This document shows positions 4,165 through 12,545 of a stretch of 32,000 nucleotides of DNA, piece by piece. The position numbers and the translations under genes are program-made. The notes under the pieces are model-generated. The model did no database searches. It was not told where the DNA came from and worked only from the letters and a program-made list of their open reading frames with translations. Origin of the DNA: an uncultured Chloroflexia bacterium (lineage in GTDB: Bacteria; Chloroflexota; Ktedonobacteria; Ktedonobacterales; JADMIN01); NCBI GenBank assembly GCA_963718915.1, contig CAVRAI010000004.1:630001-662000 (forward strand), given 5' to 3'. Every line of letters starts with the position of its first letter. Positions within the stretch are counted from its first letter, which is position 1.

Positions 4165-4278
4165 GGCAGGTGGCTCCTGGGACTCGTTAACTCTTCCGTC
4201 GGAGCAAGCTTCATCGCTATTGTACCGCCGAACCACCCGTGAGAACAGCGGATGACGCAAGTGGTAGATGCATGGACG

Positions 4279-5505
4279 TTATGGCGCGACGACGGGAGAG
4301 GCGTAGATCAAGCCGCCATCGTCATATTTCCATGCGAGCGCGCCGTCACTGGCGCGAAAGGCGTAGACGCTGCCTTTCTCGGTTGTCGAGTAGACGGCGC
4401 CGTCGGCAATCGCGGGCGCTGAGTCTACCGAGCCGTCTACAGTATGCCGCCAGTGTAGTGTGCCAGTAGTCGCATCAAGCGCCTCGACCACACCGCTCTC
4501 GCCACCGACGTAGACGATACCACCAGCCACCGCTGGCGCCGCGCCAGTTGGGAGCGCAGGCAGATTATCCGATTTGGCGATTGTGATGTGCCAACCGACT
4601 CTGCCGGACCCTGGATTAACCTGATACAGCGAGGAGTCGAGCACGCCAATGAAAAGGCTCGTACCGTCGAAGGCGGGGCGGGTAATCACGGAGTCATTCG
4701 CCTGAAATTGCCAGCGGATGGCGCCTGTATCAGCATCCAGCGCATAGAACGACGCTTGAGTATAGCCATTGGCGCCAACATACACAGTGTTGCCCGCCAG
4801 TAGCGGGTAGCTGTCGAAGCCCTGTGGCTCAGATATTTGCCAGACGATCTTGCCAGTAGCTTCATCGAGCGCATAAAAGGCATTGGTTCCGTTACCAGAG
4901 CTCACATAGACCTTGCCTCGGCCAACGGCTGGCGCCGCGTAGATATGTCCTTTGCTGCCGGGCAGGGTGAAAAGCCAGCGCTCTTTGCCCGTTTGCGCAT
5001 CAAGCGCGTAGACTGTGCCGCCATCGCTGGCGACATACAGAGTGTTGCCGTCGAGCGCGGGATAACCATCGATGCCGACCTGCGCGCTGACATTCACAGT
5101 GCGTTGAAAGCGCCAGCGTATATGTCCGGTGGCGGCGTCAACGGCATAGACGTAGCCATCCTGCGGCGCGAAGTAGATGACACCGTTGGCGACGATGGGC
5201 CTGCCAATCATCCCTGCCGTCGGCAGTCTCCAGCGCGCCGCGCCAGTCTGCGCGTTCAACGCGATGAGCGCCCATCCTGAAGGGGCGATGGCAACCGGTG
5301 AGGCGTTGATGACATAGAGCGTTTCGCTGGCGAGCTGTGCGTCCAGCGGGACTGTTGGCGTCACGCGCGGATGGGTTGTGGCAGTTGATGCGCCAGTTTC
5401 GCAGGCGGCCAGAGCGAACAGCATAAGGGCGAGGAGCGGGAAGATGCGCCGCGCGCGAAAGTAGCCGAGCGGAAGGCGTGACAATCGTCGCGAAGGGTTT
5501 TCCAT
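4279..5505 (-). CDS. PQQ-like beta-propeller repeat lipoprotein (BamB-like fold)
   Basis: Six or more repeats of the type VYALDAQTGKERW / FYALDADTGAIRW / VEALDATTGTLHW. Signal peptide with lipobox LFALAAC. SD AAAGGAGGA lies 5 nt upstream of ATG 5505. Confidence 0.85.
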   Translation of the reverse strand: MENPSRRLSRLPLGYFRARRIFPLLALMLFALAACETGASTATTHPRVTPTVPLDAQLASETLYVINASPVAIAPSGWALIALNAQTGAARWRLPTAGMIGRPIVANGVIYFAPQDGYVYAVDAATGHIRWRFQRTVNVSAQVGIDGYPALDGNTLYVASDGGTVYALDAQTGKERWLFTLPGSKGHIYAAPAVGRGKVYVSSGNGTNAFYALDEATGKIVWQISEPQGFDSYPLLAGNTVYVGANGYTQASFYALDADTGAIRWQFQANDSVITRPAFDGTSLFIGVLDSSLYQVNPGSGRVGWHITIAKSDNLPALPTGAAPAVAGGIVYVGGESGVVEALDATTGTLHWRHTVDGSVDSAPAIADGAVYSTTEKGSVYAFRASDGALAWKYDDGGLIYASPVVAP

Positions 5506-5863: not shown

Positions 5864-7429
5864 ATGCAGCTCGATCACCAGCAACGCTATCCTCAACGGC
5901 CGCTGCCTGAACAGTCCGCGCCGACCATTCCACAGCCGCCAGCGCTGGCCCCCGGTATATCACTGGCGCAGGGCCGATACCTGATTCAGGGGTACATTGG
6001 CGGCGGTGGATTCGGCCATATCTATCGCGCCCAGGACACAATGCTGCATCACTATCGCGCGCTGAAAGAGGCGTTTAGCAGCGATCTGCACGCGCGCCGC
6101 CAGTTTCGCCTCGAAGCGGAGTTCCTGCTCAATGTACGACATCCGAACCTCGTCTCAGCCTACGCGGTCTTTGAGGAAAACAATCGCCTGTATCTCGTCA
6201 TGGATTACATCGATGGACAAACACTGGAAGATATCGCTATCAACCATATCCGCAAAACAGGCCGCCCACTTGGCGAGACGCAGGTGCTTGACTGGATCAT
6301 CCCTATCTGCGACGCGGCCGTCGCATTGCATCAGCAGCCGGTGCCAATTATCCATCGTGATATCAAGCCTGCTAACATCAAGTTGAGCATCAGCACGGGT
6401 GAGCCAGTATTAATGGATCTGGGGCTGGCAAAGCTGTATGCTCGCGGGACGCAGACCATTGGCGCGGCGCTCGCCTTCACCCCTGGCTACGCGCCCCCTG
6501 AGCAGTATCAGGCGGTTGGCGCCACAGACCAGCGAACGGATGTCTATGGGCTTGGCGCAACGCTCTATTATCTGCTGACCGGTTACCAGCCGACCGAAGC
6601 TCCAGCGCGGTTGAGCGCCCATGCGTTACGCGCTCCATTTGTCCTCAATCCACTGCTGAGCAAGCGGACGAATGATGTGGTGCTGCGCGCCATGGAGCTT
6701 GATCCCGCGGCTCGCCAGCAGACGGCGCGGGAGTTGGCGGATGAGCTTACCGAGGCGCGGCGGGCGCTGACGCCGCGTGGCGCATTGTCTGGGACACCCA
6801 TTCGCCGACAGACAAAGATGCCAACGCAGACTCCAAGCAGTGGATGGCTCTGCGTGCTGTGTGGCGCGCGTAACCGCAATGATGCGCGGTTCTGCCAGAA
6901 GTGCGGCCAACCAGTGGAGGAGCAGAACGTGGTCGCACGCGATTCCGACGTGCCCGATTTTGCCCCTGAGGATAACACCCCGACAACGCCTGCGCCGCAT
7001 CGCGTCGTCCTGGTACAGCCACGACCGCAGGCGCAGCCTCAGTTATCGCCCCGGCAGCAACGTCCGCTCGAAGTTGAGCGGCCGCGTGATATGTCATTTT
7101 CGCTATCCGCGTCGAGCGGACTGCCGCCAGTTTCGCCGACGCCGGTGCGGATGCCGTGGAGCAGGAATTTGAGCGTTCCGGCGAGTCAGCATGAGGCATG
7201 GGTCAGCATCTTCGCGTTTCTGGCAATTGTCTGTGCGGCAATGAGCCTGATGGCCCTCTTTGCGCGTCCGACGCTGCTCTTTGCGATTCCGGCCATTATC
7301 CTCGGCTACTGGAGCATGCGCCAGCGGCATATACAATCAGAGTTTCGTTGGTTGGGGATTGGCGCTTTCATCGTTGGAGTCCTCTGGCTGGCGCTCTGGA
7401 TTGTGCTGTTGCTGACAGGTCACCTCTAA
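5864..7429 (+). CDS. Serine/threonine protein kinase with zinc ribbon and C-terminal membrane anchor
   Basis: Gly-loop GGGGFGHIY, catalytic loop HRDIKPANIKL, DLG (DFG variant), TPGYAPPEQ. Zinc ribbon CVLCGARNRNDARFCQKCG. Pro-rich linker followed by two or three C-terminal TM helices. Confidence 0.9.
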   Translation: MQLDHQQRYPQRPLPEQSAPTIPQPPALAPGISLAQGRYLIQGYIGGGGFGHIYRAQDTMLHHYRALKEAFSSDLHARRQFRLEAEFLLNVRHPNLVSAYAVFEENNRLYLVMDYIDGQTLEDIAINHIRKTGRPLGETQVLDWIIPICDAAVALHQQPVPIIHRDIKPANIKLSISTGEPVLMDLGLAKLYARGTQTIGAALAFTPGYAPPEQYQAVGATDQRTDVYGLGATLYYLLTGYQPTEAPARLSAHALRAPFVLNPLLSKRTNDVVLRAMELDPAARQQTARELADELTEARRALTPRGALSGTPIRRQTKMPTQTPSSGWLCVLCGARNRNDARFCQKCGQPVEEQNVVARDSDVPDFAPEDNTPTTPAPHRVVLVQPRPQAQPQLSPRQQRPLEVERPRDMSFSLSASSGLPPVSPTPVRMPWSRNLSVPASQHEAWVSIFAFLAIVCAAMSLMALFARPTLLFAIPAIILGYWSMRQRHIQSEFRWLGIGAFIVGVLWLALWIVLLLTGHL

Positions 7430-9469: not shown

Positions 9470-9988
9470 CTACGACAGTAACGCCTTTATCTGGGCAGCT
9501 GGCACATACTGTTGCCCGTCGCCCGCGTTCGGGTTGAATACACTCCCGCAGTGCTTGCAGTAGTAGAGCTGATCCCACTTGTCCTTTGCCTTCTGCCACC
9601 GGCGAAACTGGTTTGCGGTCACTCGATGCCAGATGAGGATCCACACGAAAATAGCGCCGGTTCCGATGCCGATGACGAGAAACGCGGGGGGCGTTGGGGT
9701 ATCACCTGGTGGCAGAACCACGATGCCAGCGGTGAGTAGGGCAAACTCCGCGAGACTGGCGAGTGATAAATACCCGAGCAGCACCATCCACCCGATGAGC
9801 TTCCATCCCCATTTGTCGGTGTACTCCGGCTGTGGCGGAGCCGCCAACTGCTTACTCAGCGAGCTCATAACGCTGTATTTCCCTGGTTCGAGGCCTTCGA
9901 TAGTCCCACTACTGACGACAATGCTCACCTTCTGGACATCTTCAGGCTGCGGACAGATAGGGTTCGGACATCGGATTCGCTGATTCAT
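9470..9988 (-). CDS. Hypothetical membrane protein with N-terminal CPNPIC and C-terminal CKHC motifs
   Basis: ATG 9988..9986 preceded by GCAGGAGAC (SD). 172 aa with two predicted TM helices (WKLIGWMVLLGYLSLASLAEFALL, FLVIGIGTGAIFVWILIW). The longer track ORF (to 10294) would run through the tRNA promoter region up to 2 nt short of the tRNA gene. Confidence 0.6.
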   Translation of the reverse strand: MNQRIRCPNPICPQPEDVQKVSIVVSSGTIEGLEPGKYSVMSSLSKQLAAPPQPEYTDKWGWKLIGWMVLLGYLSLASLAEFALLTAGIVVLPPGDTPTPPAFLVIGIGTGAIFVWILIWHRVTANQFRRWQKAKDKWDQLYYCKHCGSVFNPNAGDGQQYVPAAQIKALLS

Positions 9989-10178
9989 CCCGGTCTCCTG
10001 CGCTCTGCTCGCTATTATGTACCAAAACCCCGGCCGTGTGGGCAGATATTGGGCGACGCCAGTCTGTGTGACTGGCTTACTCCCGGCATCCTCCAACACA
10101 TCGCCGTCAGTCTGACGACATTCTACACCAGCAATCAAGCCAGAACTCTTCCCATGCTCATGAGCAGGTGAATGCGTC

Positions 10179-10207
10179 TTGCCATTCCTGGGTGGAGATA
10201 ATATACT
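10179..10207 (+). promoter_or_regulatory. Candidate sigma70-type promoter for tRNA-Glu
   Basis: TTGCCA (10179..10184), 17 nt, TATACT (10202..10207), about 90 nt upstream of the tRNA 5' end. A leader hairpin CTCCCG/CGGGAG lies at about 10267..10285. Confidence 0.3.
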
Positions 10208-10296
10208 ACCTGTGAGCTTTGGCTCTCGCCCTGGGGCATCTGGGCGTGGGGTGCGACCCCTGAACGCTCCCGATTCACGCGGGAGAAATGTCACTA

Positions 10297-10373
10297 GCCC
10301 CTGTCGTCTAGCGGCCTAGGACATCACCCTTTCAAGGTGGAGATCACGGGTTCGAATCCCGTCAGGGGTACCA
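10297..10373 (+). tRNA. tRNA-Glu (anticodon UUC), CCA encoded
   Basis: Cloverleaf folded by hand: acceptor GCCCCTG/CAGGGGT (G1-U72 wobble), D-arm GTCT..GGAC, anticodon stem TCACC/GGTGG, loop CTTTCAA (anticodon TTC), T-arm ACGGG-TTCGAAT-CCCGT, discriminator A, CCA. Confidence 0.9.
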
Positions 10374-10378
10374 TATTT

Positions 10379-10795
10379 ATGCCGATTCCGTCGCTGCTAC
10401 CCAGTGGACACCTTCCTCCAGGTGAATATCCTGCTACTGTTGAAGAGATACTCGCGGCATTTCCTTCGACCACTGTGGAGAGAACCGAACTCAATCAAGC
10501 CTTGCAGGATGTGATACCAGCGTTTGTTAAACTTAAAACAATTGCGCCAGATATGGTACTGTACATAGATGGCAGTTACTTGACGAATAAGACTTCTCCC
10601 GTTGATATTGATGTCCTGATCCTGACTGACGTGCTGGATGAAGTCGAGGTACAGGATTTTCTGAACCAGGAGTGCCCTGTACCAGCCACCTATTTCGATG
10701 TGCATGCCGATCCGTTGAACCGGCGCTACCTTGTCAACGTGTTTACCAGAACCCGCAGCAATCAGCCAAAAGGCATTATTCTGTTGTTGGTGTAA
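10379..10795 (+). CDS. Minimal Pol-beta superfamily nucleotidyltransferase-like protein (LPPG...DGS...DxD family)
   Basis: 138 aa from ATG 10379, 5 nt after the tRNA CCA. The track start at 10337 lies inside the tRNA. Signature YIDGSYLTNKTSPVDIDVLIL equals G-S-x9-D-x-D. N-terminal GHLPPGEY and C-terminal PKGIILL resemble an uncharacterised small NTase family, recalled from memory and not searched. Confidence 0.7.
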   Translation: MPIPSLLPSGHLPPGEYPATVEEILAAFPSTTVERTELNQALQDVIPAFVKLKTIAPDMVLYIDGSYLTNKTSPVDIDVLILTDVLDEVEVQDFLNQECPVPATYFDVHADPLNRRYLVNVFTRTRSNQPKGIILLLV

Positions 10796-10864
10796 ACACG
10801 CATGTCGAGTACTCGGCAAGAAAGCCAGTAATCCAGTGCACGTTGCACGAGAAGAGACAAACCA

Positions 10865-11110
10865 ATGAAAGAGACGCAGCCGCCGATCACTACTGCTGAT
10901 GAGTATGTGGCCTACCAAAAGGCGCTCGAGGATATCAACGCCGAATGTGCGGGACGGGAGCAGGCTGTCTTTCAGGCACAGGGCATACCAGACAAGTTAG
11001 AGCGTGCGCGCACTGCCCTCTTCCGCATGTATCGGATCCGGCAGGGTATCCTTGATGCTTTGGCTGAGTATGAACGCCAACAGTATGCCTCACAACGGAA
11101 AAGCGGATAG
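10865..11110 (+). CDS. Hypothetical small helical protein (candidate partner of the NTase)
   Basis: 81 aa, predicted all-helical with a heptad-like pattern (YQKALEDINAECAGREQAVFQAQ...LFRMYRIRQGILDALAEYERQQ). Purine-rich GAGAAGAGA upstream. Contains no His, so no HEPN Rx4-6H motif. Confidence 0.5.
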   Translation: MKETQPPITTADEYVAYQKALEDINAECAGREQAVFQAQGIPDKLERARTALFRMYRIRQGILDALAEYERQQYASQRKSG

Positions 11111-11133
11111 CATTCGGCCAGTAGTTTTTCGTT

Positions 11134-11201
11134 GTCTAGCGGCCTAGGACATCACCCTTTCAAGGTGGAGATCACGGGTTCGAATCCCGTCAGGGGTACC
11201 A
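11134..11201 (+). pseudogene. 5'-truncated copy of tRNA-Glu (att-like repeat), not a functional tRNA
   Basis: Identical to tRNA positions 10-76. The 5' acceptor strand is replaced by TTTTTCGTT, which cannot pair with CAGGGGT. Confidence 0.85.
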
Positions 11202-11216
11202 GCTAATCAGACGACG

Positions 11217-11246
11217 ATGCCCCTCATCAGTTGAGGGGCATTTTTC
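11217..11246 (+). terminator. Rho-independent terminator downstream of the truncated tRNA copy
   Basis: Stem ATGCCCCTCA (11217..11226) / TGAGGGGCAT (11232..11241), 5-nt loop, then the T-run TTTTT (11241..11245, its first T closing the stem). Confidence 0.75.
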
Positions 11247-11283
11247 GAGGATATCGCGTGCTGGGTGACTCTTGAGAAGAGAC

Positions 11284-11796
11284 TCAGCCTTGCAGGTGAT
11301 GCGCCTCGATCAGACGTGGGACACTGCCGAAGTCCAAATCCAGCCCATACTTCGCGAAGAGCGCCGCGGCCTTTTCAGGATCAGGTAAACCTGCTTCCGC
11401 CGCTGAAAAGAGCGCGGCCATCTCGCGGAAGTAGCCCTCGAATCCGGCGGGCGTAATCACCTCCAGCACGCGCGCGGGTGTATCGCCAGCGTTCCAGAAG
11501 GCATGGGGAATGCCGCGCGGCTTGAAGACCGTCGCGCCCGGCTCGGCGATCAGGACACGCTCGCCGATCTGGATGCCGACCCGGCCCTCGACGACATAGG
11601 ATATCTCGTCCTCATGGGTATGCGTGTGTGTCGGCGCTGCCAAAGCTTTGGGACGAATCGGATGCTCCACCAGCGATAACCGCCCTCCAGTCTGTTCCCC
11701 GCTCACCAGATAACGTACTCCCAGACCCCGAAGCCATACCATCTCACCGCCGTCTGGTTGTATCAGAATGTCTTCGTCATGTCCCTTCGGATCCAT
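11284..11796 (-). CDS. Cupin domain-containing protein
   Basis: Cupin motif PTHTHTHEDEISYVVEG...G...FKPRGIPHAFWN. ATG 11796..11794 is preceded by GGAGG 6 nt upstream. The track start at 11829 adds 11 aa. Confidence 0.85.
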   Translation of the reverse strand: MDPKGHDEDILIQPDGGEMVWLRGLGVRYLVSGEQTGGRLSLVEHPIRPKALAAPTHTHTHEDEISYVVEGRVGIQIGERVLIAEPGATVFKPRGIPHAFWNAGDTPARVLEVITPAGFEGYFREMAALFSAAEAGLPDPEKAAALFAKYGLDLDFGSVPRLIEAHHLQG

Positions 11797-11833
11797 AGCG
11801 CCTCCATCTTCTTTGATTTCACTGAACAATGAT

Positions 11834-11856
11834 GTATACTGATGTACAGAGTATAC
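11834..11856. promoter_or_regulatory. Inverted repeat in the cupin/TetR divergent intergenic region (candidate TetR operator)
   Basis: GTATACT (11834..11840) / AGTATAC (11850..11856), 9-nt spacer containing TGTACA. AT-rich region between starts 11796 (-) and 11907 (+). Confidence 0.4.
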
Positions 11857-11906
11857 TCAGAACATTGGAGTGTTGTCAATATCATGAAACATGGCTGTTC
11901 AATAAA

Positions 11907-12545
11907 ATGACCGAGAAACGCAAATACCAGCAAAAACTGCGCGCCGAACGGCAGGAAGAGACGCGGCGGCGCATCACTGTGGCGACGGTTGCGCTGCACT
12001 GGGAAATCGGGCCGGCACAGACGACGATTAGCGCGATTGCCGAACGGGCTGGCGTGGAACGCCTCACCGTCTATCGCCACTTTCCTGAGGAGCGTGACCT
12101 GCTCTCTGCCTGCCAGCAGCATTTTCGGACGGAGCATCCGCTGCCAGACCCCTCAGCTTGGGCCGCTCTCGCCGACCCGGTGGAACGGCTAAGGACGGCG
12201 CTGACGGCGGTCTACACCTACTACCGAGAGACCGAAGCCATGACAGCGAATATCCTCCATGATTCGTCACTGATGCCAGATCTGGCTGCCATCCTTACTG
12301 GACGCGAAGCCTACGTGGCCGCACTGCATGGGCAATTGCTGGAAGGTTGGGGCATCTCTGACGCGGCGCTTGAAATGGTGAGAGCCGCCATTGGCCATGC
12401 ACTCGACTTCGAGACGTGGCGCTCGCTGGTACGGCGGCAACAGCTCGCCGACGAGGAGGCGGTGGCGCTGATGGCGCGGTTGGTGGCGACGCTCACTGCG
12501 GACGACACAATCCACGCAGGCAATGCCACCATTCCAAAAAGCTGA
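11907..12545 (+). CDS. TetR/AcrR family transcriptional regulator
   Basis: HTH VATVALHWEIGPAQTTISAIAERAGVERLTVYRHFPEERDLL. Start MTEKRKYQQ at 11907 is preferred over 11829, because the first 26 codons are AT-rich promoter-like sequence. Confidence 0.85.
   Translation: MTEKRKYQQKLRAERQEETRRRITVATVALHWEIGPAQTTISAIAERAGVERLTVYRHFPEERDLLSACQQHFRTEHPLPDPSAWAALADPVERLRTALTAVYTYYRETEAMTANILHDSSLMPDLAAILTGREAYVAALHGQLLEGWGISDAALEMVRAAIGHALDFETWRSLVRRQQLADEEAVALMARLVATLTADDTIHAGNATIPKS

Follow-up and report, generated by a model that had tools for sequence, protein, structure and literature searches.

A nucleotidyltransferase gene and a helical-hairpin partner gene on a small insert in the 3' end of a Ktedonobacterial tRNA-Glu gene: a possible toxin-antitoxin-like module

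What kind of system is encoded by two small genes that lie between an intact tRNA gene and a partial copy of that same gene in the genome of an uncultured Ktedonobacterales bacterium (Chloroflexota)? The pair is located in a stretch of 32,000 nucleotides (assembly GCA_963718915.1, contig CAVRAI010000004.1, positions 630,001 to 662,000), which is referred to as the window and to which all coordinates apply unless another locus is named. It consists of ORF A (10379-10795, + strand), encoding a protein of 138 aa, and ORF B (10865-11110, + strand), encoding a protein of 81 aa, and these are the only genes on a low-GC insert of 757 bp (10374-11130). In our estimation the chances are about even that the locus represents a conserved two-gene toxin-antitoxin (TA)-like module, possibly connected to abortive infection or defence, which is carried by a very small insert that has no integrase and occupies the 3' end of a tRNA-Glu gene. 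A first-pass annotation, made from the nucleotide sequence, had proposed a TA, addiction or defence cassette, and considering the Xre partners of the relatives, their defence neighbourhoods and the patchy low-GC contexts this is still the best fit. What that annotation had stated about the sequence itself (the tRNA-Glu, both ORFs, their motifs, the repeat and the terminator) was correct throughout.

ORF A carries the sequence GSYLTNKTSPVDID (residues 65-78), which corresponds to the GS-x9-DxD signature that had led to its initial assignment as a minimal nucleotidyltransferase (NTase), and the assignment is confirmed by family membership, predicted fold and structural matches. The protein matches the Pfam family DUF6932 (PF22014) with 68 bits (gathering score 27; E 1.6e-18) over its full length, with residues 8-134 aligned to profile positions 5-139 of 142, and it also matches the PADLOC candidate PDC-M63A (E 3.5e-12) and phrog_9194. 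The AlphaFold2 (AF2) model, which was based on an alignment of 33 sequences, has a pLDDT of 95.5 and shows a Pol-beta-type NTase, the fold on which the initial proposal had depended. In a Foldseek search the top PDB matches were all NTases of the Pol-beta superfamily, albeit weak ones (E 8.5e-3 or worse), and included the minimal nucleotidyltransferase (MNT) antitoxins of HEPN-MNT systems (7aer_A, 7ae9, 7bxo), HI0073 (1no5), 1ylq, Pol beta/lambda and Cid1. The best of these was 7aer_A, the HEPN-MNT antitoxin of Shewanella (probability 0.97). The sequence profile of ORF A in addition gave a weak match to the core motif of the CD-NTase 6e0m (E 0.002). All the features that define a Pol-beta minimal NTase, namely the hG[GS]-x9-13-[DE]h[DE]h motif, a third carboxylate and the alpha/beta fold, were found in ORF A.

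The residues G10, G15, R35, G65, S66, P74, D76, D78 and G132 are invariant in the DUF6932 alignment. Four of these, G65, S66, D76 and D78, do not vary among 33 sequences, and D107, which is kept in the close family, is probably the other key residue of the protein. The two motifs that had been noted outside the signature, LPPGEY and PKGIILL, contain positions that are invariant or nearly so across the family (G10, L12-P14, G15 and K131-G132), and as judged from the alignment the N-terminal G-x-LPPG and C-terminal KGI motifs can be regarded as family signatures. Homologues of ORF A share 57-84% identity with it and the more distant ones down to ~26%, and PF22014 was recognized in all. Members of DUF6932 turned up in Chloroflexota, Cyanobacteria, Alphaproteobacteria, Acinetobacter and metagenome-assembled genomes (MAGs) of Actinobacteria type. 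A search of the literature returned no paper that names DUF6932 or PF22014.

The product of ORF B is predicted to be an antiparallel two-helix hairpin (helices 11-37 and 42-80; AF2 pLDDT 92) and has no histidine among its 81 residues. The recovered homologues (n=27) are 67-100% identical and nearly all 79-87 aa long, and only 26 clusters came up when 1.84 billion cluster representatives were searched exhaustively with a profile; these comprise small stand-alone proteins. A few longer ones resemble the products of frameshifts or read-through, and one is a TPR fusion. Relatives of ORF B fused to a helix-turn-helix (HTH) domain were looked for in this search, and none was present among the 26 clusters. 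Five residues are invariant within the family (Q5, I8, Y17, L52 and Y69), seven are nearly so (P7, L21, E32, R49, G61, D64 and A65), and the core motif reads RQGI-DA-x3-YE. No match to ORF B was found in Pfam (to E <= 10), NCBIfam, PADLOC, PHROGs or the PDB sequences, and none of the PADLOC models matched ORF B and its relatives even at E <= 10. Structural searches (Foldseek, PDB profile) retrieved generic helical hairpins only (E >= 0.75), which are uninformative with respect to function. Neither a conserved histidine nor the Rx4-6H motif occurs in 27 or 21 homologues and there is no match to a Pfam HEPN family. Given the modelled hairpin and the absence of these hallmarks, ORF B is not a HEPN protein and the pair hence not a HEPN-MNT system, in line with the partner having been described at the outset as helical, free of histidine and non-HEPN.

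The loci that were compared (L005 and so on) were found via look-ups of the exact proteins and pattern scans; a metagenome scan with a narrower DUF6932 alignment returned 8 loci. According to the tblastn summary, A is directly followed by B in every locus whose contig extends past A, and this adjacency spans around ten distinct genomic contexts, the named records being all Ktedonobacterales or Chloroflexota MAGs. The two genes have diverged together, as is illustrated by L018, L020 and L022, where A is 42-57% identical and is followed by an ORF of 77-78 aa that is 51-56% identical to B. The intergenic gap in the B-type pairs varies between 17 and 80 nt. Pairwise comparison with the closest relatives (Nei-Gojobori; dS 0.75-1.2) gave ratios of nonsynonymous to synonymous substitution rates (dN/dS) that amount to 0.11-0.12 in A and ~0.07 in B, and both are thus real genes under strong purifying selection. 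The co-occurrence and the coding conservation that the initial proposal implied were both recovered in this way, and the generic layout of a type II-like TA module, two small co-oriented genes whose pairing is kept across contexts, is present. The GC content of the pair was below that of the flanks in 14 of the 14 loci measured; inside the insert of the window it is 0.47-0.52, versus ~0.60 around it. A phage or virus origin of the pair was considered and discarded, as neither a tblastn comparison of A with 50,697 phage records nor scans of IMG/VR with the profiles of A and B gave a match. In one of the diverged loci a 72-aa ORF with a weak match to HTH_17 (excisionase-type) overlaps the start of A (L022:3820-4038), and genes for a bpMoxR AAA protein and a DUF6744 protein adjoin this ORF on the opposite strand.

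The operons of the more distant relatives provide the main indication of what the pair could do. In L029 and L030 (26% identity) a helical ORF of 69-72 aa overlaps the stop codon of A, and in the latter this ORF is present in two tandem copies (L030:1333-1542 and 1636-1854), the first of which makes the overlap. In L031 and L032 the next gene overlaps the stop of A by 4 nt and encodes a helical N-terminal region of ~70 aa connected to a C-terminal Xre-type HTH domain. On 34 PLSDB plasmids the DUF6932 gene is followed by a gene for a protein of 414-488 aa with an Xre-HTH and an M78 (ImmA/IrrE) peptidase domain, and then by a gene for DUF4186 or a Beta protein. The Xre-M78 gene overlaps the preceding gene by 4 nt in L034, L035 and L036, and lies 2 nt downstream of it in L037 and L039. 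One example is found on plasmid pAt2788b of Agrobacterium fabrum (L036:2456-5266), where DUF6932 and the Beta protein flank an Xre-M78 peptidase that corresponds to PADLOC PD-Lambda-2_B (E 9e-74); genes for a reverse transcriptase and a helicase lie just upstream of this triad. Other relatives are located within a BREX-like cluster, together with an unannotated protein of 336 aa and between a PglX-like (Eco57I/MmeI) methyltransferase and PglZ (L033:1-6471), or, on plasmid pNDM-AP_882 of Acinetobacter pittii, together with an ImmA/IrrE metallopeptidase gene directly after TnsD/TnsE of a Tn7-like element (L037:1-4363). The latter pair looks like the cargo of a Tn7-like transposon on an NDM plasmid.

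PD-lambda-2, an abortive-infection system that derives from TA modules and has been validated by experiment, is built such that a HigB-like gene comes first, an Xre-peptidase gene second and a P4-antitoxin-like gene third (PMC9519451), and Xre-COG2856 fusions downstream of toxin genes form a long-recognized TA pattern (PMC2701414). Considering this gene order and the triad of L036, DUF6932 takes the place of the HigB-like gene in a PD-lambda-2-like architecture, which puts it in a toxin-like slot. By analogy, we infer that ORF A is the enzymatic effector and ORF B its cognate binding partner or neutralizer. The former would transfer a nucleotide to a target, for which RNA or the 3' ends of tRNA, or else a protein, are candidates in analogy with known NTase toxins, and the hairpin of the latter would bind, restrain or regulate it. 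In the distant operons, the position of ORF B would then be filled by the helical N-terminal region of the Xre-HTH or Xre-peptidase protein. An actual homology of ORF B to these N-terminal regions, or to the short ORFs behind A in L029 and L030, was not detected, as hhalign assigned it a probability of 1.1-1.4%, and the argument that they play the same role is positional only. The hhalign alignments do begin in the same register (I-T-x-x-E-Y). The initial claim that the cassette is of an undescribed type holds for ORF B and for the present pairing, whereas the family of ORF A has been catalogued as DUF6932 / PDC-M63A. As far as the sequences tell, the novelty would reside in a hairpin partner that replaces the Xre or Xre-peptidase protein next to an NTase of a known, DUF6932/PDC-M63A type.

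Degraded copies provide a slight indication as to which of the two proteins is the harmful one. In L016 a nonsense codon interrupts A at position 90 (10268-10270) and B is intact, with a fragment of an ISAs1-like transposase gene downstream of B (10991-11449). In L012 (3633-4790) an IS256-type transposase gene separates a truncated A from an again intact B, and both genes have been reduced to fragments in L017:10001-10300. In L026 the reading frame of B breaks off after codon 59 (3606 onward), and two conserved residues of A have been replaced (G10D and P29L). A copy with a clearly unimpaired A and a lost B was not encountered among these three or four. The decay pattern fits an A that is harmful and a B that is protective.

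The same data bear on the possibility that the roles are reversed, in the manner of a type VII system, and that A is an antitoxin that neutralizes a toxin B by nucleotidylylation, perhaps on an invariant tyrosine. The gene order with the NTase first is that of MNT-HEPN pairs, the top structural hit for A is the Shewanella MNT antitoxin 7aer_A, and B possesses two tyrosines that are invariant family-wide, Y17 and Y69, although these are candidate sites only. Moreover, in PD-lambda-2 the Xre-peptidase was toxic and the first gene rescued (PMC9519451), and given that toxicity in that system lies with the Xre-peptidase, occupancy of the slot does not tell the toxin from its partner. On the other hand, B is a hydrophilic two-helix hairpin devoid of a catalytic motif, histidine or HEPN fold, and the Foldseek E-values are weak. 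The inactivation of A next to an intact B, as seen in L016 and L012, would be lethal if B were an unneutralized toxin. We consider the reversed assignment unlikely and continue with A as the putative effector and B as its putative neutralizer.

The position of the pair raises the question whether the tRNA gene is part of the system. The insert starts directly behind an intact tRNA-Glu(UUC) gene with an encoded CCA (10297-10373, + strand), which is the target of the insertion and its attL-like side. It was recognized by Rfam RF00005 (63 bits, full model) and by ARAGORN, according to which it is the single tRNA in the window. The 3' 71 nt of this gene (10303-10373, +; copy 1) recur behind ORF B (11131-11201, +; copy 2) with 99% identity and a perfect core of 68 nt (BLAST E 1e-34). 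Copy 2, the attR-like side, represents the displaced 3' part of the tRNA-Glu gene and does not have a proper 5' acceptor strand; its Rfam tRNA score is 41 bits and the match covers model positions 7-64 only, the acceptor stem being absent. An intrinsic-terminator-like hairpin with a U-run follows at 11212-11250 (+; dG -22.1 kcal/mol, z -4.9). A scan with a consensus terminator did not detect hairpins, this one included, and folding was used instead, in which none of 200 shuffles performed equally well. The hairpin is most likely the native terminator of tRNA-Glu that is now located downstream of the insert. Upstream of the tRNA gene lies a promoter-like site, TTGCCA-17-TATACT (10179-10207, +; 10/12 matches), which has been kept in L006.

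The ATG of ORF A is situated 5 nt past the CCA of the tRNA and is not preceded by a Shine-Dalgarno sequence. The first-pass annotation had rightly remarked that no promoter is visible in between, as 5 nt leave no room for one, and had taken co-transcription with the tRNA to be the design of the module. The relatives contradict the latter. The same insertion is present in the same tRNA-Glu gene downstream of RNase J in L006, L007, L008, L013 and L023, and there 125-132 nt separate the CCA from A (L006:2772-2901, L013:117-248). The spacer of these relatives contains a hairpin with a T-run (CCCACAC...GTGTGGGTTTTT), a TTGCAA hexamer and a Shine-Dalgarno sequence, GGAAGGTGAG. The window has lost it (10374-10378), the end of the deletion being 2 nt before the ATG of A. 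Since the relatives keep their spacer, the gap of 5 nt results from a deletion that is specific to the lineage of the window. In L005 and L012, furthermore, A-B adjoins a tRNA-Gln gene on the opposite strand, and most contexts (six others) are without any tRNA. The pair had also been described as closed by a tRNA-like fragment and a terminator. Both elements are there, but the fragment is better regarded as the att-like duplication that results from an insertion than as a part of the module.

One could nevertheless maintain that the A-B messenger is made within the tRNA-Glu precursor and is freed by processing of the RNase P/Z type, with the tRNA-like fragment setting its 3' end. In the window the gap between CCA and ATG indeed measures 5 nt and has no Shine-Dalgarno sequence, the only good promoter-like site upstream of A precedes the tRNA gene, and a nearly leaderless messenger would result once the 3' end of the tRNA is processed. 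In addition, copy 2 keeps the D, anticodon and T arms, is followed by the terminator and is much better conserved between lineages than neutral sites (2 differences in ~55 nt at a dS of ~1). However, the juxtaposition stems from the deletion described above, which L006, L013 and L023 do not share, and elsewhere the pair is antisense to tRNA-Gln or free of tRNA; the genome's own annotation, moreover, has for ORF A only an ORF of 80 aa that starts at M59 (P0007). The conservation of copy 2 can be explained in another way. In L006 (3650-3668) and L013 (1000-1018) the 5' half of copy 2 has diverged (TTTCGGTTCTCGAAGGGCC), whereas in the window (11131-11150) the two copies do not differ in the D-arm, which suggests that copy 2 was converted there to match copy 1; such gene conversion would keep the repeat copies similar over time. 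Copy 2 as a functional tRNA was rejected, given its restriction to Rfam positions 7-64 and the fact that the other contexts have no tRNA-like element on the sense strand. In L013 ARAGORN called copy 2 a tRNA-Glu, and the acceptor stem there has three G-U pairs and one mismatch. Taken together, a functional linkage to the tRNA is improbable as a property of the module. For the window by itself it is plausible that A-B depends on the tRNA-Glu promoter and is translated from a predicted near-leaderless messenger that arises after tRNA 3' processing, because the spacer was lost in the deletion of 125 nt, together with the hairpin/U-run and the ribosome-binding site in it, which would leave read-through of the tRNA-Glu transcript as the only route to expression of A.

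If the tRNA is not a component of the module, the repeat calls for an explanation of its own, and this can be found by looking at the other loci. At four independent sites the 3' end of the neighbouring gene has been duplicated in direct orientation, over 43 to 535 nt, and the two copies enclose A-B. These sites are the tRNA-Glu gene of the window, L006 and L013 (62-71 nt, 95-99% identity), a tRNA-Gln gene (L005:5708-5750 and 7087-7129; 43 nt, 100% identity), a gene encoding a protein of 262 aa (L011:4265-4359 and 5399-5499, L026:2680-2763 and 4180-4263, and L025; ~100 nt, 74-92% identity) and a TPR gene of 684 codons (L016:9254-9787 and 11648-12181; ~535 nt, 90% identity). In each case one of the repeats belongs to the intact target and the opposite one is the displaced 3' fragment, and nothing is found between the two except A-B and debris of insertion sequences (IS). 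The orientation of A-B is one way at two of the sites and the other way at the remaining two. In L005, analogous to the terminator-like hairpin of the window, a hairpin lies beside the displaced fragment of the tRNA-Gln gene. Arrays of 9-nt tandem repeats were observed near two of the loci, GCGAAGAGT x7 at L005:5348-5428 and CGACAAGGG-like x7 at L011:325-418.

The flanking duplications resemble the attL/attR geometry that remains after site-specific integration, and the 71-nt duplication in the window would be a scar of such an event. An integrase was looked for in several places. No integrase domain occurs among the ten nearest large ORFs of the window, the insert of which is filled by A and B, and no integrase remnants were detected in the leftover ORFs of the L005 and L011 inserts, the flanks of the L005 insert, the neighbours of L011 and those of the window. 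Four att sites that contain one and the same integrase-less cargo of two genes would not be predicted by the simple decay of islands. A-B could be the remnant or the whole cargo of a cis-mobilizable islet that was perhaps kept for being addictive. More explicitly, we would give about equal weight to either side of the proposition that the inserts are leftovers like those of cis-mobilizable elements (CIMEs), which have survived since deletion of an addiction module is counter-selected.

Two more far-reaching explanations have to be weighed against this one. The first holds that A-B is itself an active mobile element, non-autonomous or of a novel kind, that duplicates 43-535 nt of the 3' ends of its targets. 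The recurrence of one geometry at a tRNA-Glu, a tRNA-Gln, a 262-aa and a TPR gene and the restriction of the content to A-B and IS debris are in agreement with this, and the perfect identity of the L005 repeats over 43 nt suggests a recent event. It is contradicted by the lack of conserved ends, because in pairwise BLAST comparisons between contexts the DNA homology (65-72%) begins at the start codon of A and ends at the stop codon of B; neither conserved cassette ends nor inverted repeats were found. The same identities imply that the events at the different sites are old. Furthermore, no integrase or transposase is associated with the pair, six other contexts are without a flanking repeat, the pair is absent from IMG/VR and we know of no recombinase with an NTase fold. 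An active element of this kind is very unlikely. The second explanation is that A-B constitutes the whole cargo of a new miniature integrative element of 0.7-1.4 kb, without an integrase, that enters the 3' ends of at least four genes in either orientation, duplicates 43-535 nt of them and leaves each target intact. Several unrelated integrases could mobilize it in trans, with addiction securing its retention, or it could use a new insertion route in which the NTase and its partner take part. We regard this as a long shot and retain the CIME-like leftovers as the working explanation of the repeats.

The immediate surroundings of the insert are made up of housekeeping genes. Upstream these encode an ABC transporter, a TetR regulator, a GDPD protein, a Ser/Thr kinase and RNase J, and downstream a cupin, a TetR regulator, a nitroreductase and a CoA-transferase. 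Directly upstream of the tRNA promoter lies an ORF of 274 aa (9470-10294, - strand) with a hydrophobic stretch, a C-terminal CxxC zinc-ribbon-like end and a weak rubredoxin match (E 0.045); a gene of 172 aa occupies the same position in L006. A comparison of the window (11284-12545) with L006 (3848-4870) made clear that synteny is lost exactly past tRNA copy 2, where the window has the cupin and TetR genes and L006 a gene for an APH-type kinase, and that it returns at the nitroreductase and CoA-transferase genes.

This neighbourhood is one of several points that weigh against a TA or defence function, as the window locus is not part of a defence island. Likewise, E. coli NILS69 was not protected by the single PDC-M63AB system that has been put to the test. 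ORF B has no recognizable DNA-binding domain (Pfam, AF2), in addition to its lack of detectable homology to the N-termini of the Xre partners, and the toxicity of the Xre-peptidase in PD-lambda-2 was mentioned above. The sample of decayed copies is tiny, three or four, and includes L026, where B is the interrupted gene and A has only two substitutions. Finally, with no integrase, with no empty tRNA-Glu site in scans that were aimed at loci with homologues, and with no circular form, the integration history has to be reconstructed from the repeats.

On these grounds one may ask whether A-B represents a small enzyme and its regulatory or adaptor subunit with a cellular role that happens to be carried on mobile DNA, for instance in the modification of RNA or protein or the adenylylation of a small molecule. 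The housekeeping neighbours and the negative outcome with PDC-M63AB would be in line with this, and the strong purifying selection over a long divergence needs no selfish function. Yet the pair is distributed in a patchy way over around ten unrelated contexts, its GC content is consistently below that of the flanks and it is frequently pseudogenized. Its relatives, moreover, occur on plasmids, within BREX-like clusters and as cargo of a Tn7-like element, and are paired with Xre or Xre-peptidase genes that are typical of TA and defence modules. A role outside conflict therefore appears rather doubtful to us, and the TA-like module is retained as the preferred reading.

The implications extend beyond the window. 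DUF6932 is a widespread NTase family, and its toxin-like slot provides the testable hypothesis of a nucleotidyl-transferring effector that is kept in check by a coupled partner. The pair from the Ktedonobacteria, 138 aa plus a hairpin of 81 aa without DNA-binding or protease domain, would be the simplest system in which to study how the enzyme is restrained. The recurrent bracketing by 3'-end duplications in the absence of an integrase bears on the way in which small addiction and defence cassettes move and persist. And the fact that an apparent design of tRNA-coupled expression turned out to result from a lineage-specific deletion calls for caution with similar readings.

How, then, does the pair relate to systems that have been described? 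The closest catalogued relative is PDC-M63, one of the PADLOC PDC candidates, which are defined by their embedding within defence systems. ORF A is a full-length member of DUF6932/PDC-M63A and the layout of two genes with the NTase first is shared, but the second component differs, as ORF B matches no model, and the window lies outside a defence island; only one of the two PDC-M63 components is thus recognized. With PD-lambda-2 and the Xre-COG2856 modules the pair has in common that distant DUF6932 proteins occupy the first slot and that a small enzyme is combined with a translationally coupled partner. It differs in that the window has no Xre domain, peptidase or third gene and that B is a stand-alone hairpin; a downstream Xre-M78 gene was seen only in the distant loci L034-L037 and L039.

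Among the NTase-based systems, the HEPN-MNT modules of type VII (Shewanella SO_3165/3166, HI0073/HI0074) likewise combine a GS-x9-DxD minimal NTase with a small helical partner encoded downstream. ORF B, however, consists of two helices rather than a bundle of four to five, does not have the HEPN fold and has no Rx4-6H motif, and ORF A possesses an N-terminal G-x-LPPG-x-H/Y strand and a C-terminal KGI strand that are absent from MNTs. AbiEii and MenT are NTase toxins with a Pol-beta fold and offer a precedent for the nucleotidylylation of tRNA 3' ends. ORF A is only around half as large as these DUF1814 proteins and is devoid of their C-terminal domain, the two genes stand in the opposite order to AbiEi-AbiEii, and searches of Pfam, NCBIfam and PADLOC to E <= 1 gave no match to AbiEii/DUF1814 (PF08843). 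A connection to the CD-NTases of CBASS is not indicated either, as there is neither a PADLOC CBASS match nor an adjacent effector gene and ORF A measures 138 aa versus ~300 aa. With respect to its genomic setting, the insert resembles tRNA islands and CIMEs, the latter being att-flanked elements without an integrase of their own. As in these, low-GC DNA of foreign composition is enclosed by an intact tRNA gene and a directly repeated copy of the 3' portion of that gene, and the native terminator has been displaced to the far side. The differences are that no integrase lies inside the repeats, that the element in the window measures a mere 757 bp with two genes, and that the same two genes recur, in both orientations, at four different att-like sites.

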